DNA of 64,000 nucleotides, from the IMG/VR virus record IMGVR_UViG_3300021425_003554. One strand, 5' to 3'. Every line of letters begins with the position of its first letter. Position 1 is the first letter of the stretch. The translations under genes were made by a program, and so were the position numbers. Positions 645 through 64,000 of the stretch are shown in pieces. Source of the stretch: a virus. Its lineage: Duplodnaviria > Caudoviricetes. The notes below the pieces were generated by a model. That model was not told where the DNA came from and did not search any database. It was given only the letters and a program-made list of their open reading frames with translations.

Positions 645-2825
645 ATGGCCATTGGTCGTATATCGGGGTCGGTACTGAAGTCAAACCTAACCAGGAATGG
701 CGTCGACCTTGCGTTTGAAACAAACCTATTATATCTCGACGTCACAAACAGTCGCGTAGGTATCGGTACTTCAGAACCCACAACAGCATTACAGGTAGCA
801 GGAACAATAACGTCGACGGGACTGACCGTTGACACAAACACCCTACACGTCGATTCAGCAAACAACAGGGTGGGAATCGGCACCACTTCTCCGGCATATC
901 AATTTGAAATAGAGAACACAGGATCTAATGCATTATTAGTTCTTGACAGGACTGACGGTGCGGCCTGTTTCATAGAAGGCCAGGCCACTCGTTCGGCATT
1001 TGGATCAGTGGGTGCCACGCCTCTGGCGTTGGCCTATAACAGTGCGGCGGTGGTCACGATCGGTGCCAATGGTGCCATCACAGTAAACCCAGACGGGGAT
1101 GGATATACATTTCCAACCACAGATGGTTCTGCTAATCAAGTATTGGGTACTGACGGCAATGGCAATTTATCCTTTATAAATGTTTCTTTAGATAGTCTAG
1201 ACTCGGGTGGTATACTCATAGACGATAACAAAATCACAGGACAGAGATCCAACGAGAACATCGAAATTGAAGCATCTGGAACGGGTGTGATCGAAGTCAA
1301 TTCGTCTATCGTTCCAAAAACAACATTATCAGTCAGTTTGGGATCACCCACGAAAAAATTCCAAGATGCCTACTTTGGGGCAGGCACAGTTTATATTGGT
1401 GATCAATCGATCACTTCCACTTCCAATGGACTGGTCTTTTCTAATGTGACCACAAATAGCACCACAGACGACGATACCGCTATTGTATTTTCAAAATCAG
1501 GTATACGAAGTTCGGCCAAAACGATTGATGCCTTTGATTCATCTTCATCAAACTCTGCCTTATACTTTACTGTTTACAGAGACGAGATAAATGATCAAAC
1601 TCAAATTCAAAAAATATCACTGGCACACGACAGTACCTATGCATACCATTCAACTGCTGGTGTGGTTGTTTCCGGATCAGCGGCCGGTCCAACTTTTACA
1701 TCTAATCTAAATGGCGGTTCTGTACAATTAAAAGCCACGGGAAGTTCAGAAGCCAACAGTATCACGGGATACAAAATTTCGTTGGGGACAGATTCATCTT
1801 CAGGAACTAGCGGTCATACTGCTATAATTAATGTGGGATCGGTCGTAGAATCTTTTGCTTCTATGATAGATTCGTGGTCCAATTCTTCTTACAGAGCGGC
1901 CAAATACTTTATTTCTGCAAGAAATATTGCAAACGATATAACCAACAACATAGAAGCAGTTGTGTTGCACGATGGTTCGAGTGCATATCTAAATGTTTAC
2001 AATGTTGTTAGAAGCGGCGATAATAACGACGATCTTATATCATTGTCTACTGCCATAAACGGCGGTAATGTTGAATTATCAGCACAATCAAATGCTAATG
2101 ACATCTATGTCACTATGCATAGAATTTTATTAAGCAGTGATGAAACAGCAGAAGAATATGCTAACGTTAATATTATAGACGAACAAACAATATCTTCGGC
2201 AAGTACTATCATTGACACATTTAATACGACTAAAATTACAGGTGCCTTGTACTTTGTGACGGCCAGCAACGACACGTCGGGTTATTATGCGGCCGGTGAG
2301 GCCTATGTGGTGAGTGACGGAACAGATGCTTACGTGGCGGTTGGTCCAAATCTTTCTTCGAACGATGCTTTTTCAGTAGAATACTCGGCAACACTTTCCG
2401 GAAACACTGTAAATTTCAAAGCATCGGCATCCATAGACTCGGCCACAAAGATCACTGCCTATAGGATTGGATTGTTAGAGACACAGGCCACAGGTGACTT
2501 TTCTCAAACTGTGACGCTGGATACAGCACAAAACATTACAGGCAACAAGACATTTGATAGTGCGATAAGTTTATCAGTCACCAATGATCCAACAGGAGCC
2601 ACAAATAAAGCACACATATACGCCAAAGACGAGTCAAGCAGTGCAGAAGTATTTGTGCGTGACGAAGCAGGAAACGTGACCAAGATATCTCCACACAACG
2701 AAGCGGGCGAATGGGAATATTATTCTCGAAATACAAAAACTGGTAAAGTAGTACGTGTCAATATGGAAGAAATGATACGAGATCTAGAGCAGTTAACTGG
2801 TAAAACTTACATCAAAAACGAATAG
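645..2825 (+). CDS. Tail fibre-like virion structural protein
   Basis: SD aaggag; VGIGT repeats; three IDxF/W..AxY repeats; Ser/Thr/Gly-rich. Confidence 0.7.
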   Translation: MAIGRISGSVLKSNLTRNGVDLAFETNLLYLDVTNSRVGIGTSEPTTALQVAGTITSTGLTVDTNTLHVDSANNRVGIGTTSPAYQFEIENTGSNALLVLDRTDGAACFIEGQATRSAFGSVGATPLALAYNSAAVVTIGANGAITVNPDGDGYTFPTTDGSANQVLGTDGNGNLSFINVSLDSLDSGGILIDDNKITGQRSNENIEIEASGTGVIEVNSSIVPKTTLSVSLGSPTKKFQDAYFGAGTVYIGDQSITSTSNGLVFSNVTTNSTTDDDTAIVFSKSGIRSSAKTIDAFDSSSSNSALYFTVYRDEINDQTQIQKISLAHDSTYAYHSTAGVVVSGSAAGPTFTSNLNGGSVQLKATGSSEANSITGYKISLGTDSSSGTSGHTAIINVGSVVESFASMIDSWSNSSYRAAKYFISARNIANDITNNIEAVVLHDGSSAYLNVYNVVRSGDNNDDLISLSTAINGGNVELSAQSNANDIYVTMHRILLSSDETAEEYANVNIIDEQTISSASTIIDTFNTTKITGALYFVTASNDTSGYYAAGEAYVVSDGTDAYVAVGPNLSSNDAFSVEYSATLSGNTVNFKASASIDSATKITAYRIGLLETQATGDFSQTVTLDTAQNITGNKTFDSAISLSVTNDPTGATNKAHIYAKDESSSAEVFVRDEAGNVTKISPHNEAGEWEYYSRNTKTGKVVRVNMEEMIRDLEQLTGKTYIKNE

Positions 2826-2826
2826 A

Positions 2827-2857
2827 TTGACAGATTTCCTTTTTCGTGTTATAAATA
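2827..2857 (+). promoter_or_regulatory. Composite sigma70 / T4-type late promoter
   Basis: TTGACA(2827)-17 nt-TGnTATAAA, overlapping TATAAATA(2850-2857). Confidence 0.7.
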
Positions 2858-2905
2858 TAATTGACACGACAATACACACACAAACACAAACAAAGGAGAA
2901 ATGTT

Positions 2906-3292
2906 ATGTCAACTAAAACAAGAAACGGCTATGAAATCAGAGCCGACCTATTAGGACTAGCCAAAGATATTGCTCAGTTCAACTATTCAATTAAACTTAA
3001 CGAATTTGAAATGTCATCTAAAAAAGATGGTGATCAAGTTGTGACTGAGTTTAAATTCCCAACTATCAGTGCGGAAGACATCATTGAAAACGCAAAGAAA
3101 TTCAATGAGTTCGTAACTAATGGTTCGTCTGTGGCAGAAAACACCCAGATGTTGATGGAAGGCGTGAAGAAGTTCAACGAAAACGTTCAGAATGCGTGGA
3201 AACCTGAAAATATCCAATCTAATTGGAAAAAGTACCAAGAGGATGTACAAAAACTTTCTAGTGCTTTTTTTAACGGAGTGTCTAACAAATAA
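2906..3292 (+). CDS. Hypothetical phage protein (NGYEIR motif)
   Basis: SD aaaggag precedes ATG 2906; hairpin follows the stop. Confidence 0.65.
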   Translation: MSTKTRNGYEIRADLLGLAKDIAQFNYSIKLNEFEMSSKKDGDQVVTEFKFPTISAEDIIENAKKFNEFVTNGSSVAENTQMLMEGVKKFNENVQNAWKPENIQSNWKKYQEDVQKLSSAFFNGVSNK

Positions 3293-3301
3293 TCAGTAAA
3301 A

Positions 3302-3326
3302 TACTGCTGGGTCCTGCCCAGCAGTA
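3302..3326. terminator. Hairpin terminator
   Basis: tactgctggg-tcctg-cccagcagta perfect 10-bp stem. Confidence 0.65.
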
Positions 3327-3339
3327 TACTTTTCATTTC

Positions 3340-3558
3340 ATGAAACAGTTTTTATTGATCGCGTTGTTTATAACCTTTGTAGGATGTACAGGAGTAAACG
3401 ACTGCCGAGTTTCTCCCACAGTTAGTATCGAACAAAAAAAAGAAGTATCTTCTGAACAATCAGATAAAGAAAAAACAAGTAATCAATCACCCACGGAACT
3501 AATAAAAGACAGTATTGAAAATGCTCAACCGGGCGGTCAATTGAAATGTTCTTTTTAG
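3340..3558 (+). CDS. Putative lipoprotein
   Basis: MK + hydrophobic stretch + FVGC lipobox-like motif. Confidence 0.55.
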   Translation: MKQFLLIALFITFVGCTGVNDCRVSPTVSIEQKKEVSSEQSDKEKTSNQSPTELIKDSIENAQPGGQLKCSF

Positions 3559-3986
3559 ACTCTTTTTCTATTTTCTAGATGTGCTTGTTCCACAAGCGAT
3601 TTATTTTGACCGTAATAAGGAACTGCGTGTCCCACATCACACATTAGTTGGTTGACTGATTTACCGTCACACCACACGTCGCCAAGTATTCGACCAAATT
3701 TACCTGTTTCAGAACTTTTGTAAGTTTTAATTGTAATTTTTTTTGCTTTTTTAATTTGTTCTTGTAAAAATTTTTTGGATTTTAAACCGTATTTCTTTTC
3801 TTCTTTGTCTCTGGTCCTTGATTCTGGAGTATCTATGCCAAATAGTCTAACTCTTTGAGCAAACAATATATCAAAACCCATGTCTAACACTACGTCAATA
3901 GTATCTCCGTCCACAACTTTTGTGACTCTTTTAACTCTGTAACTGAAATCTGTTGGATCTCCCAACTTTGGTGCTTTTGTTGGCAT
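3555..3986 (-). CDS. Staphylococcal nuclease (SNase/thermonuclease)-like protein
   Basis: VVDGDTIDV, VRLFGIDTPE and GKFGRILG motifs; start coupled to the upstream stop (TAATG). Confidence 0.85.
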   Translation of the reverse strand: MPTKAPKLGDPTDFSYRVKRVTKVVDGDTIDVVLDMGFDILFAQRVRLFGIDTPESRTRDKEEKKYGLKSKKFLQEQIKKAKKITIKTYKSSETGKFGRILGDVWCDGKSVNQLMCDVGHAVPYYGQNKSLVEQAHLENRKRV

Positions 3987-4129
3987 TATAAATTTCCTTC
4001 CCACTTGCCGTATCGAGTGCTTTTCTTTTTTTTCTTTTTCTTTTTCTTTTTATTAGAAGAACGATTATCCTCAAAACTCATGATATTTTGTACAGATCTA
4101 TCTAACATTTTTTTGATAAAATTAATCAT
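3986..4129 (-). CDS. Unannotated 47-aa basic protein with a run of 10 Lys
   Basis: MINFIKKMLDRSVQNIMSFEDNRSSNKKKKKKKKKKSTRYGKWEGNL*; TAAATA 6 nt upstream; stop overlaps the SNase ATG. Confidence 0.55.
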   Translation of the reverse strand: MINFIKKMLDRSVQNIMSFEDNRSSNKKKKKKKKKKSTRYGKWEGNL

Positions 4130-4146
4130 ACAATCTATTTATTGTT

Positions 4147-4575
4147 TTAAACAATAAGGTCTAAAATTGTTTGTAATTTACCTTTGATTGCTTTGTTGTT
4201 CAAGGTGTTTCTTAGACCCGCATGAAGATTCTTTGGCCAGTATTCAAAAGCACACCAGGCATAGGAGTTGTGTTCGTGATTAAGTTTTGGTAAAAACTCA
4301 TCTGCTATGGCTATCACGAATGTATTAAAGAAAAATTTCTGATCGTTCGAGGTGAATAATTCCAGGGGTATGACTTTTTTGAATTGAGGTAATGCTCCGA
4401 CTTCTTCCTCAATTTCTCTTTTTAACCCCTCAAAAACCATTTCATAAGATTTGGCTCTACCACCAACAAGTCCCCATTGTCCTTTGGTTTTACTATCGTT
4501 TCTTTGTAAAAATAAAAAACGTTTGGTGTTGACGGCATAAAATAATGCACCAGAACATACAATATTATCTTGCAT
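4147..4575 (-). CDS. NUDIX hydrolase
   Basis: Nudix box GGRAKSYEMVFEGLKREIEEEVG. Confidence 0.85.
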   Translation of the reverse strand: MQDNIVCSGALFYAVNTKRFLFLQRNDSKTKGQWGLVGGRAKSYEMVFEGLKREIEEEVGALPQFKKVIPLELFTSNDQKFFFNTFVIAIADEFLPKLNHEHNSYAWCAFEYWPKNLHAGLRNTLNNKAIKGKLQTILDLIV

Positions 4576-4583
4576 AATTTATA

Positions 4584-5963
4584 TTATAACACAATGGTCC
4601 ACTTGCCGCCAAGATAAATTCCTTCATAACTTTTTACCCAAGCAATACCATTGAATTTGTATTGTATGCCTGTGTTTAGATTGGTAACATATTCAACTGT
4701 GGAATCAAAAGCAGAAGCGTCCCATACAATAGACCATCTATCTGTGGCACTATCATATTGTATGATATCATTAACCGAGGCGTTGAGACCACCTTTCCAA
4801 TAATCGGTGCTGTCTCCGATCTCGTCTGTGATCAAATATCTTGTGCCATCTACCGGAGGATCTGTGGGATCAAAAGTTAATGGATTGATAATTTTGTTGA
4901 CCGATGGTATTGTGTTAGCAGGAATAGTATCTGTGTCGATATTAAAAATCAAGATGGTATCATCTAAAGACGATGTAGATATAGTACCACACACTTCATT
5001 ACCGTTTTCCTGAGTAAGTTTAATTTGTGTTATGCCATTTGTTATTTTTCCATATTGATTTAGCAAGACGTTCCAGTTAATTGCAGGACCAAATGTTGTA
5101 AAAGGATCTAACTCGTTTGCTCTTGCACCTGTATAAAATCCGTCGCCGCCCGATGATACGCTAGTACCTGTTGACCCAAGCAGACTCAATTGATTACCTC
5201 TCACCAATAGTTTAAAATTATTTGGGGTAATATAACTTTTTGTCAATAGTGTTCCGTCGATCAATCCTTTGTTGATTCCTCCGTTATCGTCATACATACT
5301 CATTATTATTTTTTGTACCACTCCTAATTTAGAAACTTTAACAGGAGGAGATAACCAAATTGGCATAGAAAATGTCATTTGTGCGACATCAATTTCTGAT
5401 TCCGTTCCAACTGGAATTGTTCTGGATGAAAAAGTAGTATTAACCAATTCCACATAACTCAAACTGGTCCAATCGATATAGTTGTCAGATTTTTGTATTT
5501 CAAAATCTGGATTGAACAGATATAAAATCTGTTCCATTATCTGTAATTTCATATCTGTGTTTGTGGTAAAAATATCAGCCGCTACATTCAGTCTAAAAGG
5601 CGAAGGCATCGCTTTATGAACAGTATATCCTTGGCCTAAAGTAGAGGTATAATTTCCATCTGCACCGATATCTCTTTCTTGTAGATGTTGTTTTTCGATA
5701 TGATAGGGATTCTGCATTCTTTCTCTGTCATATTCGAGTCCTGTGATGTACGCAGAAATTTTAGGTGCTGATACCAATGTGTTTTCCGAATTGTTTTTTA
5801 GAATATTTGCAACCTGTCTGGTGATGTCTCCATAAGACACAGGTACCTGTCTTAAAATTTGATTTCCGGCACCATCCTTGCCCATGTCAATTGAAAAATT
5901 ACTTAAAATTCTCACAAATTGAGTAAGAAATTTTCTTATCTGACCATCATAAAAATGTAACAT
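4584..5963 (-). CDS. Tail terminator / sheath stabiliser (T4 gp15-like) with C-terminal extension
   Basis: HFYDGQIRKFL..F, VPVSYG, QIMEQILYLFNP motifs; next to neck genes. Confidence 0.7.
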   Translation of the reverse strand: MLHFYDGQIRKFLTQFVRILSNFSIDMGKDGAGNQILRQVPVSYGDITRQVANILKNNSENTLVSAPKISAYITGLEYDRERMQNPYHIEKQHLQERDIGADGNYTSTLGQGYTVHKAMPSPFRLNVAADIFTTNTDMKLQIMEQILYLFNPDFEIQKSDNYIDWTSLSYVELVNTTFSSRTIPVGTESEIDVAQMTFSMPIWLSPPVKVSKLGVVQKIIMSMYDDNGGINKGLIDGTLLTKSYITPNNFKLLVRGNQLSLLGSTGTSVSSGGDGFYTGARANELDPFTTFGPAINWNVLLNQYGKITNGITQIKLTQENGNEVCGTISTSSLDDTILIFNIDTDTIPANTIPSVNKIINPLTFDPTDPPVDGTRYLITDEIGDSTDYWKGGLNASVNDIIQYDSATDRWSIVWDASAFDSTVEYVTNLNTGIQYKFNGIAWVKSYEGIYLGGKWTIVL

Positions 5964-5964
5964 C

Positions 5965-7404
5965 TTAATTGTCCGCCTGTGGTGTCAAAGCACCGGTTAA
6001 ACTTTGATTTTGTTTGACTCTGTTGTTATAAAGCCTAACACTCCATAAACCACTGTAAGATATTTTTTCTTGTACACTGTTTATCACCGGAAGACTAATT
6101 TTAACTTTTGTTGTGCTTGTCGAATCTATGTAACTAGAAAGCATTGACGTATATGTTGCTGTGGCATAGGGAATTTCTAAACCTTCATATCTTAAAACAA
6201 TATAATTGGCATTAGATGAATCAGAATCCCAATCTATATTTGTATAAATTGCGGTGTCGTCTTTGAGTAAGTTGACAAAATCAGAACCAACTCCTCGATT
6301 GTATGTATAAGCAGTGTTGTTTGCAAAGGCAGTTTTAAATGTGTTCCTTGCATTATTATTTGTAGTTGTCATACGCACACTGTCTTCTACTTTCACCCAT
6401 CTTGTGCCATCGAATCTAAATAATCTGTTAGGCAAATAGTCCAAACGTAAACAATAATCACCTTTTGCTACATTTTCAACTGGAAATTTAATACCACTTG
6501 TCATTTCAAATCCATTAGGCGGAACACCGTCGCCATTATAATAAAATCCATAGTGTCCGGATGCTGGAGTATCAATAACTGCATTTGTTGTTTTGTTGAC
6601 ATTGTTAACATTAGAAGAGGAATTGACGCTATCTGTTCTTATATTACCTCGTTCGTCTATCGGTGCAACATAATATTGTTTGTAGTTAAAGCCGGCCTTC
6701 GGAGCATCTGCCTCGGCCTGGGCGACCACCGCTTCATTGATTTCTAATTCTTTCTGATATGTACTCATGTATTTTGAGAGTTTGTTATCAGTACCTTCAA
6801 CTTTCTTGTCAAGTATTTCTTTGTATTCTTGCGAATCAACAATGGTTTTCAATTTTAATCTCAATAGATGAGGCCACCAAGTTTGCGAAAATCCTTCAGC
6901 GGCTCTATTAACATCTTCAATGACGTAAAATCTTTTAAGTGCGATCGCTATTTGATCTGCATATGAGTTATTTTGAAGTGGGAAATCGTCCTTCATATGA
7001 GGTAATTCTATAACATCACCTGCCATTGGTTTTCTTCCAATTCGTTCCACAATATCGTTGAGATGCACAGTCATAAAAACAGTGTCGTTTTGTAGGAACA
7101 TTCCAAATTGTGATAAGTTAAAATCAACGTCTTGTACATTGTAAATGCCTCTCACTATATAAACGTCTTCTGAATATTTTCTATTTCTGTTTTCTAAAAA
7201 TAGTAAGTCTTCAATATTGGTTTCACTCAAAACATCGTACTGTTTTACATCTGCAGTCGCATCGTTTTCTGTGGGATTTTTTGTACCTAGATATTTGTGT
7301 AGATATATGTCGGTACCTCCAACCGTAAACATTTCACGTATATTTCGGTCAAAAAACTTGTAATCGTTGCCTTTTTCTGGCTTGTATATAGATAGTCTCG
7401 GCAT
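5965..7404 (-). CDS. Neck / head-closure protein (gp14-like)
   Basis: MPRLSIYKPEKGNDYKFFD, EDLLFLENRNRKY, LSQFGMFLQND, PMAGDVIELPH motifs; context. Confidence 0.55.
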   Translation of the reverse strand: MPRLSIYKPEKGNDYKFFDRNIREMFTVGGTDIYLHKYLGTKNPTENDATADVKQYDVLSETNIEDLLFLENRNRKYSEDVYIVRGIYNVQDVDFNLSQFGMFLQNDTVFMTVHLNDIVERIGRKPMAGDVIELPHMKDDFPLQNNSYADQIAIALKRFYVIEDVNRAAEGFSQTWWPHLLRLKLKTIVDSQEYKEILDKKVEGTDNKLSKYMSTYQKELEINEAVVAQAEADAPKAGFNYKQYYVAPIDERGNIRTDSVNSSSNVNNVNKTTNAVIDTPASGHYGFYYNGDGVPPNGFEMTSGIKFPVENVAKGDYCLRLDYLPNRLFRFDGTRWVKVEDSVRMTTTNNNARNTFKTAFANNTAYTYNRGVGSDFVNLLKDDTAIYTNIDWDSDSSNANYIVLRYEGLEIPYATATYTSMLSSYIDSTSTTKVKISLPVINSVQEKISYSGLWSVRLYNNRVKQNQSLTGALTPQADN

Positions 7405-47616: not shown

Positions 47617-47767
47617 TAGACATAGTTTATGATAAATAGTGTCTGTAAAAAAAATGAAAAAACAACATTTCATAAAAGTTACCATATAGAAAAAATCAAT
47701 TAAAATTCCCAGAAGTTTAAAGAATTTGTGAATGGCTTTACAGCCACACAAAAATAAGGAGAAAACT

Positions 47768-48706
47768 ATGAAAATAACAAAGAAAAAAATAGGCCTAGGT
47801 GTAGCGATTATTATTGCACTTGGCATATTATGGTCGGTTTTAAAACCGGCTCCAGCAGAAGCGGCTGATATGAAAGTTTATGGTTCATTAAACTATATGC
47901 TTTCTAATAACGAGGACGCTAACGGCGTGGCGACATCGAAAGCGGAGAACAACGGTTCTTCTATCGGTGTTGATTTCTCGAGCAACCTATCAGAAGGTAT
48001 CGACGGCTTTGCCAAATTAGAAGTGGACATCGATGCAGATGATTCTGGCTCAACACCATTTGATTCAAAACTAGCATATGCTGGTGTTGACATGGGCGAT
48101 GCAGGTATGCTGTCAGCAGGTAGACAAAACTCTGTATTCAAAGGTGCAGTAACATCTAAAACAGATGTGTTCCCAGAATATGGTAATAGTGCATCACAAA
48201 AACTGTTCAGTAGAGATTCACACACAGTAATCTACTCTAACACATTTGGTGCAATACAGTTGGATAACTTGATCAAAGTTGACGGAACAACTGGTAAATC
48301 AGGTGTTGATGTTTATGAAACTGCGGCTTCTATGGATGTAAGTGATGAACTAAACGTAGGTATTGCTTACTCAGATGACAAAGTAAATTCGATCGAGTAC
48401 AAAGGTGCGGGTTTAAATTTTGATTTGAACGATGCTGTTACAATTGGTTACAATTATACAATTAAATCAGTTGAGTCAACATCATTAGACACTACTGCGA
48501 ATGAACTAGTTGGTTCATACACCATTGGACAAACAACATTTTCAGCAGGTTACGGTGAGATCGAAGATGGTAACAAGTATCATACGTATGGTGCCGAGAA
48601 AAAAATTGGTAGCAACTTTAGTATGTACGCCGGTTACGAAATCACTGACGTACCATCAGGTACAGACACAAACGACATGGCAGTAGGAATGAAATTTACA
48701 TTCTAA
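47768..48706 (+). CDS. Gram-negative outer-membrane porin
   Basis: Signal peptide ending AEA-A; VYG, S.IG, KLE, YAG, LSAGRQ; amphipathic strands; C-terminal Phe. Confidence 0.85.
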   Translation: MKITKKKIGLGVAIIIALGILWSVLKPAPAEAADMKVYGSLNYMLSNNEDANGVATSKAENNGSSIGVDFSSNLSEGIDGFAKLEVDIDADDSGSTPFDSKLAYAGVDMGDAGMLSAGRQNSVFKGAVTSKTDVFPEYGNSASQKLFSRDSHTVIYSNTFGAIQLDNLIKVDGTTGKSGVDVYETAASMDVSDELNVGIAYSDDKVNSIEYKGAGLNFDLNDAVTIGYNYTIKSVESTSLDTTANELVGSYTIGQTTFSAGYGEIEDGNKYHTYGAEKKIGSNFSMYAGYEITDVPSGTDTNDMAVGMKFTF

Positions 48707-54888: not shown

Positions 54889-54963
54889 TGGCGGTCCCTA
54901 GGGGAATCGAACCCCTCTTTCGAGGATGAAAACCACGTGTCCTAACCGATAGACGAAGGGACC
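54889..54963 (-). tRNA. tRNA-Glu(TTC)
   Basis: GGTCCCT acceptor stem, TTC anticodon, GTTCGATTC T-loop, encoded CCA; one U:U in the anticodon stem. Confidence 0.9.
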
Positions 54964-54966
54964 GTT

Positions 54967-55042
54967 TGGTGGAGGTAGAGGGATTCGAACCCACGACCCC
55001 TTGAATGCAAATCAAGTGCTCTCCCAACTGAGCTATACCCCC
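54967..55042 (-). tRNA. tRNA-Ala(TGC)
   Basis: Cloverleaf, TGC anticodon, G3:U70 identity pair, encoded CCA. Confidence 0.95.
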
Positions 55043-55051
55043 ACATCGATG

Positions 55052-55127
55052 TGGTGCCCCAAGTCCGATTCGAACAGACGACCTACTGATTACAAATCAG
55101 TTGCTCTACCAACTGAGCTATTGGGGC
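55052..55127 (-). tRNA. tRNA-Thr(TGT)
   Basis: GCCCCAA/TTGGGGC acceptor, ACTGA-TTTGTAA-TCAGT anticodon arm, encoded CCA. Confidence 0.95.
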
Positions 55128-55723
55128 CAAATACCGTATTCAATTATTTCTGAAATACCTGTATATAGAAAGTATACAGCAAGTATGCTAAAAATCCAAC
55201 GACTAATTTTAAAAATATTTTTGATGGGTAATTTTGTTATTTGATTATAGATTATTTTTGATACAGTCACCAATATTACCAAACCAGCCAAAATACCCAA
55301 ATATACCATTTGAATGTCCTGACTATCGATGATTATGCCTGTAAGAAATATAACCACTTCGACCCCTTCTCGAAACATTATACCAAAAACAGCAAGTCCT
55401 AATAACAAAGAGTTTCCAAAAGGTAAGGCTTTAACGTGCTGGCTGGCACTATGGCAGAACCATGCCACCCAGGCTAGTACAACACCCGTAATGACCCCTA
55501 TAAACCCTTCAAATCGCTCTGTATTTGCGTGATTGCCTAATAACTGGGCAGTTGTAGTGCCCAAAGCAATAGTGGCCAAAATAGACCCTAAAACTGCCCA
55601 TATAATGACTTTTATATGTTTGGGATTGTTGTTGGCCGCTGTGATGGCCAGCACCGCTATCAGCCATGCTTCAAGTCCTTCTCTGGCTATTACAAACGTG
55701 GTTGCTAGTAGAGTGGTAATCAT
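55118..55723 (-). CDS. FTR1-family high-affinity iron permease
   Basis: Two RExxE motifs (REGLE, REGVE); multiple transmembrane helices. Confidence 0.88.
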   Translation of the reverse strand: MITTLLATTFVIAREGLEAWLIAVLAITAANNNPKHIKVIIWAVLGSILATIALGTTTAQLLGNHANTERFEGFIGVITGVVLAWVAWFCHSASQHVKALPFGNSLLLGLAVFGIMFREGVEVVIFLTGIIIDSQDIQMVYLGILAGLVILVTVSKIIYNQITKLPIKNIFKISRWIFSILAVYFLYTGISEIIEYGIWPQ

Positions 55724-58640: not shown

Positions 58641-59492
58641 ATGAAAACAATTATAACCTGTGCTGTAACTGGTGGTAAAACTGATCCAAACTCCACACCA
58701 TACTTGCCAATAACACCGGAACAAATTGCACAATCCTCGTTGGATGCCGCGGCGGCGGGTGCTTCCATAGTACACATACACGTTCGAAATCCAGATAACG
58801 GTAAACCGTCTATGGACAAAGATCTTTACCAAAAAACTGTTGACTTGATAAGAAACAAGAACGAAAATCTTATTATTAATCTCACAACAGGCCCGGGTGC
58901 TGTGTATAAGCCATTAACAAATGATAATTCTGGATTAATGGATGCTCAAACAAGAGTGGAACACATAGATAGTATACGTCCTGATATATGTAGTCTAGAC
59001 TTTAACACCATGATGCAAGATGACGACGGTGTTAGGATAAACTCTATTCCTGTCGTTGCTGAGATGCTTTTGAAAATACAGTCATATGGCACACTTCCGG
59101 AATTTGAAATTTTTGACAGCGGTGATCTCAGAATTGCAAAAAAACTCATTAGTGACGGACTTACGAGCAGACAACCCATATGGCAAATAGTGACGGGAGT
59201 CAAATACGGATGGGAGTCTTCCATCAACACAATTGATTATGCGTTAAAAATTTTACCGGAAGACTCAATTTGGTGTGCTCTGGGAGTAGGCAAGATGTCT
59301 TTGCCTATAGCAGAATATGTTCATCAAAAAGGTGGCCATGTTAGGGTTGGCATGGAAGATAACATCTACCTCGAAAAAAATGTGCTCGCGAAATCAAATG
59401 CAGAGCTAGTAGAACAATGCGTATCTTCGATAGAAAAAACAAATGGCTCTGTGGCTTCCGTCTCTGAAGCAAGAACAATATTAAAAATTTAG
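58641..59492 (+). CDS. Beta-keto acid cleavage enzyme (BKACE / 3-keto-5-aminohexanoate cleavage family, DUF849)
   Basis: IITCAVTG, P.TPEQIA, GASIVHIHVR, LTTG, PEFEIFD, RVGMEDN. Confidence 0.92.
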   Translation: MKTIITCAVTGGKTDPNSTPYLPITPEQIAQSSLDAAAAGASIVHIHVRNPDNGKPSMDKDLYQKTVDLIRNKNENLIINLTTGPGAVYKPLTNDNSGLMDAQTRVEHIDSIRPDICSLDFNTMMQDDDGVRINSIPVVAEMLLKIQSYGTLPEFEIFDSGDLRIAKKLISDGLTSRQPIWQIVTGVKYGWESSINTIDYALKILPEDSIWCALGVGKMSLPIAEYVHQKGGHVRVGMEDNIYLEKNVLAKSNAELVEQCVSSIEKTNGSVASVSEARTILKI

Positions 59493-59497
59493 TCAAA

Positions 59498-59526
59498 AAA
59501 AAAGGGCCGCCGAAGCGACCCTTTTT
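59498..59526. terminator. Bidirectional terminator
   Basis: A-tract + agggccgc-cgaa-gcgaccct + T-tract between convergent genes. Confidence 0.8.
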
Positions 59527-59546
59527 AAAAGTTGATTTAAAACTAA

Positions 59547-60035
59547 CTAGGCTTTCTTGATTCTATCAAGTAATCCAGGTGAAAATGTTGGTTCGAACTT
59601 TTCGTACACCGTTTTAGTCTTTTCCTTGAACTCTGCTGTTTCTTCCGGGGTAAGCTCGTGAACGTTAACACCCTCTGATTTCAATCTAGCCTTGGCTTCT
59701 TCTCCATCAGCGATCGTTGTTTCACGTTCTTTTCTTCCGGCATCAATTGCGGCCGCTTTTAAAACAGCCTTGACTTCTGGAGATAATTTCTCATAGAAAT
59801 CATTACGCATGATCATGGTTGTTAAGAACAAACTGTGTTTCGTATCAATAACCGATTTGGTCACTTCGTTCTGGTCCAAAGGGTAAACTCTAGAGTAAAC
59901 TCCTTCTCCGCCTTCACATTTTCCTTCTTCGATTGCACCTTTTAGATCTTCTATTTCACAAACGTGTCTATCTGTGACACCTAGTGCTTTGAAGGTTTCT
60001 TGGGCAACCGGGTTTCTGTTAGTTCTAAGTTTCAT
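59547..60035 (-). CDS. dctP: TRAP solute-binding protein-like, C-terminal half
   Basis: MKLRT (conserved Arg), TKHSLF, FYEKLSPEVKAVL..AA, G..VHELTPEE. Confidence 0.8.
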   Translation of the reverse strand: MKLRTNRNPVAQETFKALGVTDRHVCEIEDLKGAIEEGKCEGGEGVYSRVYPLDQNEVTKSVIDTKHSLFLTTMIMRNDFYEKLSPEVKAVLKAAAIDAGRKERETTIADGEEAKARLKSEGVNVHELTPEETAEFKEKTKTVYEKFEPTFSPGLLDRIKKA

Positions 60036-60038
60036 TTA

Positions 60039-60509
60039 TTACGCAGTTAAGTCACCTAGTTTGCTAACTTTTTTGTTAGAAACTACGTTTCTGAAACCAC
60101 CTGAGTAAGTAAATGCCATACCTCTAACGTTAGATTTTTCAGTGATTTTATTTAATAATTCTTCACCTACTTCACCTTCTAACACTCTAGTTGCATGATC
60201 ATGATCTGCAAATATGAAAGGCATTTCTAATGCTAACATATCTTGTTCATAATGCTCTGCTAACCATGTAGTGTACATTTGAGACATTTCAATTTTACCT
60301 TGTTCCATCAAGTCTAATAAGTCGTGTTTAGTAACTAATACACCGTTGTTGTATTTGTCACTGTACTCTCTTAATGTCATGATTTCAACTTCGATTTTTT
60401 CTGCAGTCTGAGCTCTGTTCACGAAATCTTGGAAATCTTTAGCCGCTCTTACGAATAAAGATAAAGGCTCGTGTGCAATAACCCATCTGATTTTAGTTGT
60501 TTTTGTCAT
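60039..60509 (-). CDS. dctP: TRAP solute-binding protein-like, N-terminal half, no signal peptide
   Basis: LEMPFIFADHDHA..VLEGEVG, SGGFR; SD aaggaag; ends in TAA TAA in frame with the C-half ATG. Confidence 0.8.
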   Translation of the reverse strand: MTKTTKIRWVIAHEPLSLFVRAAKDFQDFVNRAQTAEKIEVEIMTLREYSDKYNNGVLVTKHDLLDLMEQGKIEMSQMYTTWLAEHYEQDMLALEMPFIFADHDHATRVLEGEVGEELLNKITEKSNVRGMAFTYSGGFRNVVSNKKVSKLGDLTA

Positions 60510-60637
60510 TGTGTTTCTTCCTTTTTATTTAACGTTAAATCAAGGCTGTGTTTACATTCTTGACTTACTGATATTTACCAATTAAATCAATGATAATATG
60601 TGTTTTCTGGCTAGTTTTAAATAATATACGCATATAA

Positions 60638-61903
60638 CTATCCTTTGTACTCGCTCAGCATTTTATCATAAAAATTATCAACATCATGATTTGGTTGCCA
60701 ATATTGATCAAATAAGAGGTCCGGTTGTGTTATTTTTAATGCCGGTTGTTGTCCAGCAATCTTATTTTTATACTTGTAATACTCGGTCATCTTAGAATAG
60801 TCGAAAATATATTTTTTAACCAAAGATTTGTGTTTGGTCATGTCTGCTGTTGGAATAAGTGACTTTAAATTAGTATAGGACCACTGCTGGAACTTGTCTG
60901 TGTTGAAAAAAGTATTTTTAGAGAAAAATTTTTGTTTTTCAAAAGATATATGTTCTCCGCTGTTATTGTATAAAAACGGTCGTTGGCAACTGAACTCCCA
61001 TTTGAAATTGAAATATGTCCACCAATACCAATCTGCTATACTAGTGAGATAATCATTGTGTTTGTTTTCAATAATATTATTCGAGAGTTTTTCACAAAAC
61101 CAATCAACGCAGTTTTTTGAAAACTCCGAGATATGCTTGTCAGAAAGATAGTTTTCTGGCAAACTTATTTTATAAAAATTGGTTTTGTTTTCTAGAATTT
61201 GTATCAATGGTTTTTTTATTAGATCCATATTTTTTTGCCAGGATTCGTGGTGAACTCCTTGACGTATAGCCATTTTCATTCTGCTTATGCTGGGACCAAA
61301 CAAGCAGTCGGCTGGGTCTCCGTGTAATAGAATGTACTGATCTAGAAACTCGTTTGTGACTAAAAAGAAAACAGAACTTCGAATTGCTAGTTTTCTGTAA
61401 ATAAATTTCATAAAAAATTCTGGATGTTCAAAAATAGAATCGGTATTACAAATGACCTCTATCATGTCGTGTTCGTTGTTGGGTATGTTTTTCAACAACG
61501 AAACCAATACTGATGTGGAATCAATTCCACCACTCCACATCACTGCCAGTTTCTTGTTGGAGTTCTTGGCCTCGTTGTACAACTCCATGGCTCGTGAATC
61601 ATAAATGTCCTCTAATTTATCATCGATGAATTTCAATTCGGGCATGGCATACAGTGGATTGCTGGGTGCGTTCCATGGATTATTAAAAGTACCCGATCGG
61701 GCTCGCCAGTCTGAAATACCTTGCATTAATTTATAAATCTGACCCCAGTACATACCATAAGGATTTTCTGGATACACAGACCTACTCAAAGGAAGATCAT
61801 ATCCCATGCTTAAAAAATTTGATACTGTATTAGATTTTGCAAATTTGTCTTTGACAGATTTGGGTAATGGAGAATTTTGGAACTTAACGATCTGTAATTT
61901 CAT
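60638..61903 (-). CDS. Asparagine-synthetase-fold ATP pyrophosphatase, paralog A
   Basis: VMWSGGIDST PP-loop; HGDPADCLFGP resembles the SGEGADELFGG motif; no glutaminase domain. Confidence 0.7.
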   Translation of the reverse strand: MKLQIVKFQNSPLPKSVKDKFAKSNTVSNFLSMGYDLPLSRSVYPENPYGMYWGQIYKLMQGISDWRARSGTFNNPWNAPSNPLYAMPELKFIDDKLEDIYDSRAMELYNEAKNSNKKLAVMWSGGIDSTSVLVSLLKNIPNNEHDMIEVICNTDSIFEHPEFFMKFIYRKLAIRSSVFFLVTNEFLDQYILLHGDPADCLFGPSISRMKMAIRQGVHHESWQKNMDLIKKPLIQILENKTNFYKISLPENYLSDKHISEFSKNCVDWFCEKLSNNIIENKHNDYLTSIADWYWWTYFNFKWEFSCQRPFLYNNSGEHISFEKQKFFSKNTFFNTDKFQQWSYTNLKSLIPTADMTKHKSLVKKYIFDYSKMTEYYKYKNKIAGQQPALKITQPDLLFDQYWQPNHDVDNFYDKMLSEYKG

Positions 61904-63808
61904 TTAATTTCTTGCTCAAAAAAAATCTTATATGTTCTATCATGCTGTGCTCTTGGATTAAGTCTTTATATAGATTTGGATTTTTTTGAAAAGAACTCAA
62001 ATTGTCAAATCCGTCTTCTAATAAAAAATATCGATAACGCGGACTCGTTGTGTTTTTTGTTTTTGATGTTTTATCTATCATGTCGTTAATAAAGTCTAGA
62101 ACACAGTCGTTGTTTGATATGTCTATTTTATTAAAAGAGTCGATTAATGATTTTGTAACATATTTTTGGTATTCGTGTAAATCTGCACTATGTCTATCGT
62201 TTAAATTTAGCTCTTGTTCAAATATTTTTTTTAATTCCTCACTATGATCTGGTGTGTCCACTAATAGTTTTAAAAAATTAAAAAATTCTTTTATTCCATT
62301 ATCTTTATCTCTAGTTGAATCTATTTTAAAATTTTTTATTGAATCTAACTGTATTTGAACAATTTCAAAAATTTCTAATATTATTTCTAATACGTCTTTC
62401 AATTTATAGGAAATATCTATGTCAGTTGGTGAAATCATGATACCGGATTCTTTGGCATTATGCAGTGACACTGTTTGCTCTAGACTTTGAATCATGGTAG
62501 TGTTGGCACCATATTTTACACAATTGGTATTGTCTATGTTATCTAATATTATATCTCTATACTCAGTATTATATTTTTTTTGGTAATCTATTGTTTGGGT
62601 TATGTTTAATACCGGATAGAAATATTTTTGCATTATGACAAATTGTACTTGTTTAATAGCAGAAAAATTTGTTGACACCACAACAAATTTATTAGCGGCC
62701 GGGTCTATTAATCCATATAACTCGTTTGACATAATGTTAATTATTACCCTTTATAACGATCCAGAAGCAATCTGGAAGTTTTAGCGACCCTATGATCGTC
62801 TTCATTCCAGGCGTGTCCTACCCACTCGTCGTCATAATAAAAAGGATTTATCGTGCCGTCACTATTCACATTCACAGTTCTCAAAACATTTACCGGAGTT
62901 TTGGTTCCTACTTTTGTTTTTGTACTGAAGTAAATTTCATTGTGATCAAACTCGTACACATATTTTTTTAAATCTATTTTGTGTTGTGATACATCTTTAG
63001 GTATCAAATTTTTTAAATTGGTGTAGGACCATTGCTGGAACTTGTCTGTGTTGAAGAATGTGTTCTTGGCAAATTGCTCTTGATGTCCGTGTGGTATCGA
63101 TTTCTTGTGCATGGGTATTCTTTTGCTATCTTGCTGTAAAGATCTCATATAAAAGAATGGACGTTGGCAACTGAATTCCCACTTGAAGTTGAAGTATTGC
63201 CACCACCAGAAATCTGCAACAGTTGATACATAATCAGATTGTCCGGCCTGTTGTATTGTTTGATTTATCTTGTCATAGTACCATTGATTGAAATCAAAAC
63301 CTAATTGATATGTTGACAGCAAAGGGTGTTTGATGTTTATTTTATGTATGCTGTGTGGTTTTAAATGGATGCCCGATGACTCATAATTTTTAACAGTTTG
63401 ATTATTGCTCGACGGCATATTGGGACCAAACAAGCAGTCGGCTGGGTCTCCGTGTAATAGAATGTACTGATCTAGGAAATCAACATCTAGTTTTATGTCT
63501 ATGTAATTTTTTTGTTTTAACTTGTTACTGATGTGTTTAAAATAAAAATTAACATTCTCATATATCGAGGAAGTTGTCATGATGACCTCTATCATGTCGT
63601 GTTCGTTGTTGGGTATGTTTTTCAACAACGAAACCAATACCGCAGTGGAATCAATTCCACCACTCCACATCACTGCCAGTTTCTTGTTGGAGTTCTTGGC
63701 CTCGTTGTACAACTCCGTGGCTCTCTCGTCCAGCAAGTCACTCATTTTGTCGTTGATGAATTTCAATTCGGGCATGGCATACAGTGGATTGCTGGGTGCG
63801 TTCCATGG
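61291..63808. repeat. Identical DNA blocks shared by the two paralogs, offset 2130 nt
   Basis: 61291-61345=63421-63475; 61452-61510=63582-63640; 61515-61586=63645-63716; 61625-61678=63755-63808. Confidence 0.9.
61884..62732 (-). CDS. Hypothetical protein
   Basis: 282-aa AT-rich ORF between the two paralogs. Confidence 0.6.
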   Translation of the reverse strand: MSNELYGLIDPAANKFVVVSTNFSAIKQVQFVIMQKYFYPVLNITQTIDYQKKYNTEYRDIILDNIDNTNCVKYGANTTMIQSLEQTVSLHNAKESGIMISPTDIDISYKLKDVLEIILEIFEIVQIQLDSIKNFKIDSTRDKDNGIKEFFNFLKLLVDTPDHSEELKKIFEQELNLNDRHSADLHEYQKYVTKSLIDSFNKIDISNNDCVLDFINDMIDKTSKTKNTTSPRYRYFLLEDGFDNLSSFQKNPNLYKDLIQEHSMIEHIRFFLSKKLNEITDR

Positions 63809-64000
63809 CGTGCTGAACGTGCCTCTGCGAGGACGAGTGTCATGAATTCCTAGCAATATCCTCGGAATAAGAATCCAAGCAACGGCAAAATTGTTTTTTT
63901 TCATTTCATTTAGGTATTGTTGGACCTCCCAGTTATCGACCATTCGAGATGATTTAATTTTTTTCACATGATCAACTGGATATTTTTTGCTGTGATAGTT
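62744..64000 (-). CDS. Asparagine-synthetase-fold ATP pyrophosphatase, paralog B (start probably beyond the window)
   Basis: Same SGGIDS and HGDPADCLFGP motifs; frame stays open to the window edge upstream of GTG 63967. Confidence 0.7.
   Translation of the reverse strand, partial: NYHSKKYPVDHVKKIKSSRMVDNWEVQQYLNEMKKNNFAVAWILIPRILLGIHDTRPRRGTFSTPWNAPSNPLYAMPELKFINDKMSDLLDERATELYNEAKNSNKKLAVMWSGGIDSTAVLVSLLKNIPNNEHDMIEVIMTTSSIYENVNFYFKHISNKLKQKNYIDIKLDVDFLDQYILLHGDPADCLFGPNMPSSNNQTVKNYESSGIHLKPHSIHKINIKHPLLSTYQLGFDFNQWYYDKINQTIQQAGQSDYVSTVADFWWWQYFNFKWEFSCQRPFFYMRSLQQDSKRIPMHKKSIPHGHQEQFAKNTFFNTDKFQQWSYTNLKNLIPKDVSQHKIDLKKYVYEFDHNEIYFSTKTKVGTKTPVNVLRTVNVNSDGTINPFYYDDEWVGHAWNEDDHRVAKTSRLLLDRYKG

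Follow-up and report, generated by a model that had tools for sequence, protein, structure and literature searches.

The window, that is, the whole 64-kb stretch of DNA analysed here, belongs to a marine jumbo myophage; its genes include those for a tail sheath of 1040 aa, a large terminase, helicases and tRNAs. On its minus strand, two adjacent cistrons encode the N-terminal and C-terminal parts (N-half and C-half) of a protein of the DctP family of TRAP solute-binding proteins (Table 1). The minus-strand junction between them reads GGT GAC TTA ACT GCG TAA TAA ATG AAA CTT AGA ACT, and both ORFs share one reading frame in the window; the preliminary description of this locus, which reported two intact same-frame halves joined by TAA-TAA-ATG, is therefore confirmed by direct reading of the strand. 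The Shine-Dalgarno sequence and the two upstream TAAATA elements that it listed are all present 5' of the N-half as well. The locus gave zero blastn matches against 50,697 GenBank phage records.

Table 1. Coordinates of the two cistrons, their flanking elements and selected neighbouring genes in the window
Feature	Position	Strand	Evidence or remark
Gram-negative porin	47732-48706	+	PF13609, E 6.6e-19; PF00267, E 2e-9
FTR1-family iron-permease-like membrane protein	55118-55723	-	PF03239, E 2.7e-12
BKACE (beta-keto acid cleavage enzyme) gene, convergent to C-half	58641..59492	+	PF05853, E 1e-84
Intrinsic-terminator-like hairpin, 12-pair stem and T-run	59499..59526	-	21 nt past C-half stop
C-half cistron, 162 aa and TAG stop, starts M-K-L-R	59547..60035	-	ORF, PF03480, dN/dS
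Second in-frame TAA, forming the 3-nt inter-cistron spacer	60036..60038	-	identical in L023-L026 and library contigs
N-half cistron, 156 aa and TAA stop, starts MTKTTKIRW	60039..60509	-	ORF, PF03480, dN/dS
Shine-Dalgarno-like AGGAAG, 7 nt ahead of N-half ATG	60517..60522	-	read directly
Second TAAATA, 17 nt 5' of N-half ATG	60526..60531	-	read directly
Upstream TAAATA, late-promoter-like	60572..60577	-	read directly from sequence
PP-loop (SGGIDS) ATP-pyrophosphatase-like gene, upstream	60638..61903	-	motif, weak fold matches, synteny
Second PP-loop (SGGIDS) paralogue	62744..63967	-	same cluster 3; weak QueC-like PHROG match

The two cistrons may share one transcript, which would run from a promoter 5' of position 60509 as far as the terminator (59526..59499), and ribosomes halting at TAA-TAA would then restart at the ATG 3 nt further on. 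Because no strong Shine-Dalgarno sequence precedes the C-half ATG in the window, translational coupling of the C-half is treated here as an assumption. The terminator-like hairpin is common to the C-half and the convergent BKACE gene, and one RNA-library contig (X16) ends within it, at 59522. Two RNA-library contig ends, at 60549 and 60555, lie just downstream of the late-promoter-like TAAATA, and hint only weakly that a transcript starts at this place. In addition, one RNA-library contig corresponds exactly to 59522-60549, from the terminator to ~40 nt upstream of the N-half ATG, with a depth of 298 versus 2 in the flank; this fits a bicistronic unit, with the reservation that a contig cannot prove one transcript and that RNA libraries may contain DNA.

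The two ORFs are two parts of one DctP domain, as the N-half matches positions 13-134 of the 286 positions of Pfam PF03480 (E 5e-17, 62.5 bits) and the C-half positions 138-284 (E 2.5e-25, 89.8 bits; cut-off 23.4 bits in both cases), in agreement with the earlier statement that the halves jointly span a complete DctP. The protein read through both stops scores 131 bits against NCBIfam TRAP_S1 NF037995 (cut-off 50) and 115 bits against TIGR00787, under the cut-off of 175. Its nearest counterparts are the single-ORF, signal-less DctP-like proteins of related jumbo phages (PHROG 31178, annotated as of unknown function) and of Bdellovibrionota MAGs, which carry the same motifs (WV[IL]AHEP, DHxHA and TYSGG), show 44-78% identity in the N-half and also have PP-loop neighbours; they differ in being one chain rather than two. 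The closest cellular relatives are mostly found in MAGs of Bdellovibrionota, Elusimicrobia and Polyangia.

The junction recurs in independent assemblies. Twenty public runs, which belong to 17 studies of marine and salt-marsh metagenomes and include six RNA libraries, contain the stretch, and TAA-TAA-ATG was found in four IMG/VR contigs from four different metagenomes; a fifth IMG/VR contig has just the C-half, identical in sequence, at its end. The IMG/VR record G001 retains TAA-TAA-ATG at 98.9% identity to the window over 3.9 kb, with six differences within the split gene (five synonymous and one K-to-R), and the loci L025 and L026 have diverged enough from the window to represent distinct strains with an unchanged junction. 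One DNA contig and two RNA-library contigs cross 60036-60041 without an indel or any other letter, so that the check over the junction proposed in the preliminary description left the two stops in place. A sequencing or assembly artefact in a truly continuous gene, for which only the prior odds of error in a single metagenomic assembly speak, therefore has next to no chance of being correct: the junction is identical in four assemblies from different samples, including the two distinct strains, the DNA and RNA-library contigs are independent, and in more distant relatives the two halves stand in other frames.

Scanning IMG/VR with each half separately yielded ~80 loci. Among the 77 with both parts, the gene is continuous in 52 and split in 25, and the N- and C-halves are adjacent in every one of the 25 split loci. 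A maximum-likelihood tree of the concatenated N and C parts places every one of the 21 distinct split genes in a single clade (SH-aLRT 97) that is nested within the continuous ones, which fits one fission event followed by retention. The split thus recurs among phage DctP homologues, and the close relatives of the window gene are split rather than continuous. Taken together, the recurrence of the junction in independent assemblies and RNA-library contigs, the monophyly of the split genes and the purifying selection described below strongly support the earlier proposal that the split has evolved and is not a miscall.

Within the split clade, there are at least five junction layouts with three frame relations (offsets 0, 1 and 2). 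In the first, found in the window and in L023-L026, TAA-TAA-ATG connects the halves in the same frame with a 3-nt spacer; in the second (GATGAAGATCAGAACTAA), the C-half starts 17 nt ahead of the N-half stop, which gives a 17-nt overlap in the +1 frame; the third has a 4-nt ATGA overlap in the +2 frame; the fourth has a 19-nt spacer; and the fifth has an 81-nt spacer with a GC-rich hairpin and a T-run. The 19-nt and 81-nt spacers part the halves in L044, L068 and L027, and in L068 and L027 the halves have a terminator-like hairpin between them. In every layout, ATG or GTG stands at one and the same codon, in the context M/V-K-(I/L/V)-R-T/A-N, and the C-half has, across all junction types, a conserved start of its own that is placed for coupled translation. 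Continuous relatives have G-E-K-L-R or G-T-P-V-R at that codon, with no start codon there. At the split site, the closest continuous genes read ACT GGT GAA AAA CTA CGT, with ACT G GTG AAG ATC AGA at this place in the split genes L047 and L050. A comparison of these sequences makes a 2-nt loss in the A-run a likely and plausible origin of the fission: the loss would have brought a resident GTG into frame with K-I-R, and the upstream frame would have stopped 17 nt further on. In later variants, GTG may have been improved to ATG and the junction tidied, TAA-TAA-ATG being one endpoint of this process.

The same layouts bear on whether the gene could be decoded into a single chain, by read-through or reassignment of TAA in the window and by frameshifting in the relatives. 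The shared frame of the window halves would allow this, and some jumbo phages have suppressor tRNAs or altered codes. However, TAA ends 39 of the 58 long ORFs in the window, and TAA reassignment was rejected on this count; moreover, two TAA codons stand here in tandem. For the relatives, offsets of 1, 2 and 0 would require a +1 shift, a -1 shift and read-through, respectively, the longer spacers (the 81-nt one with its hairpin) part the halves altogether, and each variant has its own start at the codon where continuous relatives have none. A programmed recoding site, with one conserved frame and a slippery or read-through context, was not found at the junctions. Because TAA is the main stop in the window and three frame relations would call for three mechanisms, we regard recoding as highly improbable.

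Split genes are known from other phages. The large subunit of the T4 topoisomerase is encoded by a split gene as gp39 and gp60, and nrdA of phage Aeh1 is split by mobE. As in these systems, in which the products reassemble, one ancestral gene is here present as two adjacent cistrons. In contrast to them, no mobile endonuclease or intron was seen at the window junction, and the product has a ligand-binding clamshell fold and is not an enzyme.

Selection on the two halves was estimated as NG86 (Nei-Gojobori) dN/dS; in the split clade the values are 0.086 (N-half) and 0.107 (C-half), compared with 0.081 and 0.157 for the N and C parts in the nearest continuous clades. Both halves are thus under purifying selection and neither evolves neutrally, as the preliminary description expected of a functional split. 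In the TAA-TAA-ATG subclade, changes are mostly synonymous: the window differs from L025 by 29 synonymous-type and 4 amino-acid-changing differences in the C-half, and from L026 by 17 and 2, respectively, in the N-half. Among 5.8 billion proteins searched, the C-half matched at least 293 clusters (90% identity); the clusters listed, 120 in number, all represent stand-alone proteins of 153-165 aa. Stops inside domains typically mark pseudogenes, and the double stop could be taken for a lesion in a recently inactivated gene whose halves are decaying. Such recent inactivation is extremely improbable, as both halves are intact in 21 of the 21 distinct split genes with dN/dS of ~0.1, the start codon is kept at one position across five junction types, stand-alone C-halves recur among these clusters, and the C-half has been duplicated, with both copies kept, in two lineages.

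To obtain a structural model, both TAA codons were read as Gly and an alignment of 30 family members was supplied to AlphaFold2. The resulting read-through model (pLDDT 95.8, pTM 0.91) matched the solved TRAP binding proteins 4xfe, 8t9t, 4p47 and SiaP over its full length in Foldseek (TM 0.83-0.89) and shows the two-domain type II binding-protein fold, with long hinge strands and a spanning helix. The break lies past the long hinge strand E128-144 and the short helix H153-156, just before strand 161-163. The earlier placement of the split at the start of domain II needs a small correction here, since hinge strand and helix both precede the break, which is not at the immediate entry to that domain. 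Strand 161-163 carries Arg-162 of the read-through protein, which is Arg-4 of the C-half. This residue is invariant in the 34 sequences of alignment A3, and we take it to be the equivalent of Arg-147 of SiaP; the Arg of the GGFR motif in the N-half is presumably the equivalent of SiaP Arg-127. If the latter assignment is correct, the binding site would be built from both chains, each giving one of the two arginines. When aligned via the closest continuous relative, Arg-4 of the C-half falls on the R of GLKIRT (KxR) in 4p47. The conserved Arg of DctP proteins is a carboxylate-binding selectivity filter and is present in 96.8% of the family (PMC4646407).

Modelled as two chains, the halves form a complex with an ipSAE of 0.92, versus 0.00 for the best control; among 80 solved complexes, 58 attain this mark, as do 2 of 110 mismatched pairs. 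Contact agreement between runs was at least 94%, with a partner pLDDT of at least 92. The heterodimer prediction suggested in the preliminary description therefore returned a confident model, although this pass may reflect likeness and not binding, because single-chain DctP structures are solved. The modelled interface comprises ~350 contacts, in which C-half segments touch N-half residues 13-39, 68-114 and 126-156, and neither half by itself makes a closed domain in the model. As the C-half contributes to both domains, the halves would not be separate lobes and would have to assemble interwoven. The two chains would accordingly fold into one DctP-type clamshell, to which the N-half would give the first part of domain I, the hinge strand and the GGFR Arg, and the C-half the conserved carboxylate-binding Arg strand, the rest of domain II and segments returning to domain I.

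That the halves act independently, or that only one of them is functional, with no reassembly into one fold, is suggested by the terminator-like hairpin between N and C in L068 and L027 and by the fact that the C-half can be duplicated without the N-half. We consider this very unlikely in view of the adjacency of the halves in all 25 split loci, the extensive modelled interface with C-half segments packing into both domains, the failure of either half alone to make up a closed domain of the fold, and the equally strong selection on both. Reassembly into a single two-chain protein remains the preferred reading.

The duplications take the form of one N-half followed by two diverged C-halves (N-C1-C2) and were found in L027 (6001-7542), L068 (6001-7539) and L033 (5998-7442). 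L027 and L068 represent a sister lineage of that of the window, and the N-C1-C2 array of L033 is independent. A 567-nt gap in L027 that had been considered as a mobile element was rejected as such, as it is the second C-half copy. Between L027 and L068, orthologous C copies are 90% identical and paralogues 78-83%; because orthologues are closer than paralogues, both C copies predate the divergence of these two phages. Among the 18 fixed differences between C1 and C2 in L027 and L068, 16 are confined to C-half residues 18-48, a segment that comes after the Arg strand and its helix in domain II. These arrays suggest that fission lets one chain be exchanged, a simple route by which ligand specificity could be swapped. 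At L035 (6001-8655), two split N-C pairs stand in tandem and are followed by a third, distant DctP-like gene of 350 aa, and many other phage contigs have two to three tandem DctP-like paralogues.

The preliminary description had also noted that the N-half has no signal peptide. In-frame stops lie 5 and 9 codons 5' of its ATG and strand 1 of the model starts at residue 4, which together make a signal peptide impossible, and none was found in ~80 phage copies of the signal-less DctP-like gene. Many related phages have TctC-like genes (PF03401) beside the DctP-like gene, and these carry classic signal peptides, so that such phages do supply leaders to proteins that are to be exported. The earlier finding that the window lacks DctQ and DctM holds too: tblastn with one bacterial DctQ/DctM pair gave zero matches in the 64-kb window or in 78 phage loci, and DctM (PF06808) is missing in all of five large records of related phages, which include ones rated 100%, 99% and 91% complete. 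Neither a dctQM pair nor an export signal on the DctP-like gene was thus found in the window or in related phage genomes. DctM was likewise not shown by four of the five bacterial genomes that hold the subfamily. Many Bdellovibrionota chromosomal copies, located on large bacterial contigs, have a signal peptide. The Bdellovibrionota MAG contigs L117-L143 contain such signal-bearing members with the WV[IL]AHEP and TYSGG motifs in predatory bacteria whose genomes are mostly without DctM, and the neighbouring genes there encode methylmalonyl-CoA mutase/MeaB, an acyl-CoA-synthetase-like protein, MBOAT and an NMT1-type ABC system.

The split protein is therefore a TRAP binding-protein homologue that lacks two functional features of the class, export and a DctQM partner. 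With DctP-family TRAP binding proteins such as SiaP, DctP and IseP it shares the full-length fold, the Pfam and NCBIfam TRAP_S1 assignments and the conserved carboxylate-binding Arg; it differs from them as a phage protein without a signal peptide that consists of two polypeptides, has PP-loop neighbours and lacks a DctQ/DctM partner in related complete phage genomes. The orphan TctC/Bug binding proteins resemble it in having no cognate membrane unit, and related phages pair a TctC-like with a DctP-like gene. Unlike the split DctP, however, proteins of the TctC/Bug family undergo export, and signal peptides are retained in the TctC-like genes of the phages.

The fold and the conserved Arg are those of transporter binding proteins, and the protein might still act outside the cytoplasm, being released at lysis or exported otherwise to feed or block a TRAP (DctQM) transporter of the host. 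Genes for a porin and an FTR1-like permease in the same phage, and the signal peptides of the Bdellovibrionota homologues, point the same way. Nevertheless, such a role is unlikely, because the signal peptide is missing from all ~80 phage copies while the neighbouring TctC-like genes keep theirs, DctM does not show in most of the bacterial genomes with the subfamily, and two leaderless chains would each need export. The missing signal peptide, as set against the TctC-like neighbours, and the heterodimer model fit the earlier proposal of a cytoplasmic two-chain binder, whose product would remain in the cytoplasm of the infected cell without a TRAP membrane unit.

The preliminary description had suggested that the product could be a metabolite sponge or sensor, or a substrate carrier for the adjacent ATP-pyrophosphatase-like enzymes, and the link to these enzymes gains support from synteny: of 70 distinct phage loci, 59 have an SGGxDS PP-loop gene at most three genes away from the DctP-like gene. 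In the subclade of the window, two to three PP-loop paralogues of ~420 aa lie upstream on the same strand. These enzymes are so diverged that they can be placed just by their motif and by weak fold matches: Pfam, NCBIfam and PDB gave no sequence match for the PP-loop neighbour, and the Atlas yielded nothing beyond leads to Asn_synthase/QueC families. Its model (pLDDT 80) has weak Foldseek matches throughout (best E 0.011), almost all of them to PP-loop enzymes, namely TsnB9, LarE, NAD synthetase, AsnB and beta-lactam synthetase. On the basis of this gene order, the nearest PP-loop gene is a likely functional partner of the split DctP. Between G001 and the window, this gene (60638-61903) has 28 differences, about half of them amino-acid-changing; compared with the six in the split DctP, this indicates that the PP-loop genes evolve much faster.

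Related gene orders occur elsewhere. On the MAG contigs L111 and L113 (243 and 504 kb), genes for an SDR, a BKACE, an unknown protein of 254 aa, a PP-loop protein and a signal-less DctP-like protein lie in one direction; in L111 the set spans 1339-6061, and L113 has the same order. In L039 (3761-5870) and many phage loci, a PP-loop-motif gene (~394 aa) is followed by a signal-bearing TctC-like and then a signal-less DctP-like gene, and an AhpC/TSA peroxiredoxin gene and a CMD/AhpD-like gene often lie upstream of this order.

We therefore favour, as the probable reading of the locus, an evolved fission that has given rise to a coupled, obligate two-chain, cytoplasmic DctP-fold binder of an organic acid, tied by synteny to very diverged PP-loop enzymes. 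Under this reading, a signal-less DctP-family gene of the jumbo myophage would have been cut into two adjacent cistrons, and the product would most likely bind an organic acid and serve as the substrate-binding or substrate-holding subunit for the neighbouring PP-loop enzymes, which appear to be of the carboxylate-adenylating type. A further step, in which the fission itself was adaptive and a constant N-chain is combined with alternative C-chains that retune the pocket, in a cytoplasmic substrate-holding subunit of a phage pathway based on very diverged PP-loop ligases (together with BKACE here), is a tentative and rather doubtful extension.

TRAP-type binding proteins are textbook transporter components of the periplasm, and the gene described here belongs to a large phage-borne branch without an export signal or a transporter. 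A literature search for phage DctP-like, cytoplasmic DctP or naturally split binding proteins found none, the term 'DctP' mostly retrieving the nucleotide dCTP. If the chains assemble as modelled, they would constitute a natural split binding protein, for which no literature case was found in this fold, and the break would offer a ready-made, evolution-tested split site for building two-part biosensors from binding proteins. Service as a substrate-holding subunit of a PP-loop pathway would, if confirmed, be new for proteins of the TRAP binding type, for which no such role has been described. The gene orders also point to an uncharacterised metabolic module of marine and lake jumbo phages that comprises a PP-loop enzyme, DctP-like and TctC-like proteins and BKACE. 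The wider island of the window contains three radical SAM genes, genes for a cupin and TauD, and an AspH-like gene in addition to the FTR1-like permease and porin genes, and the FTR1-like gene adjoins a tRNA-Glu/Ala/Thr cluster (54889-55127).
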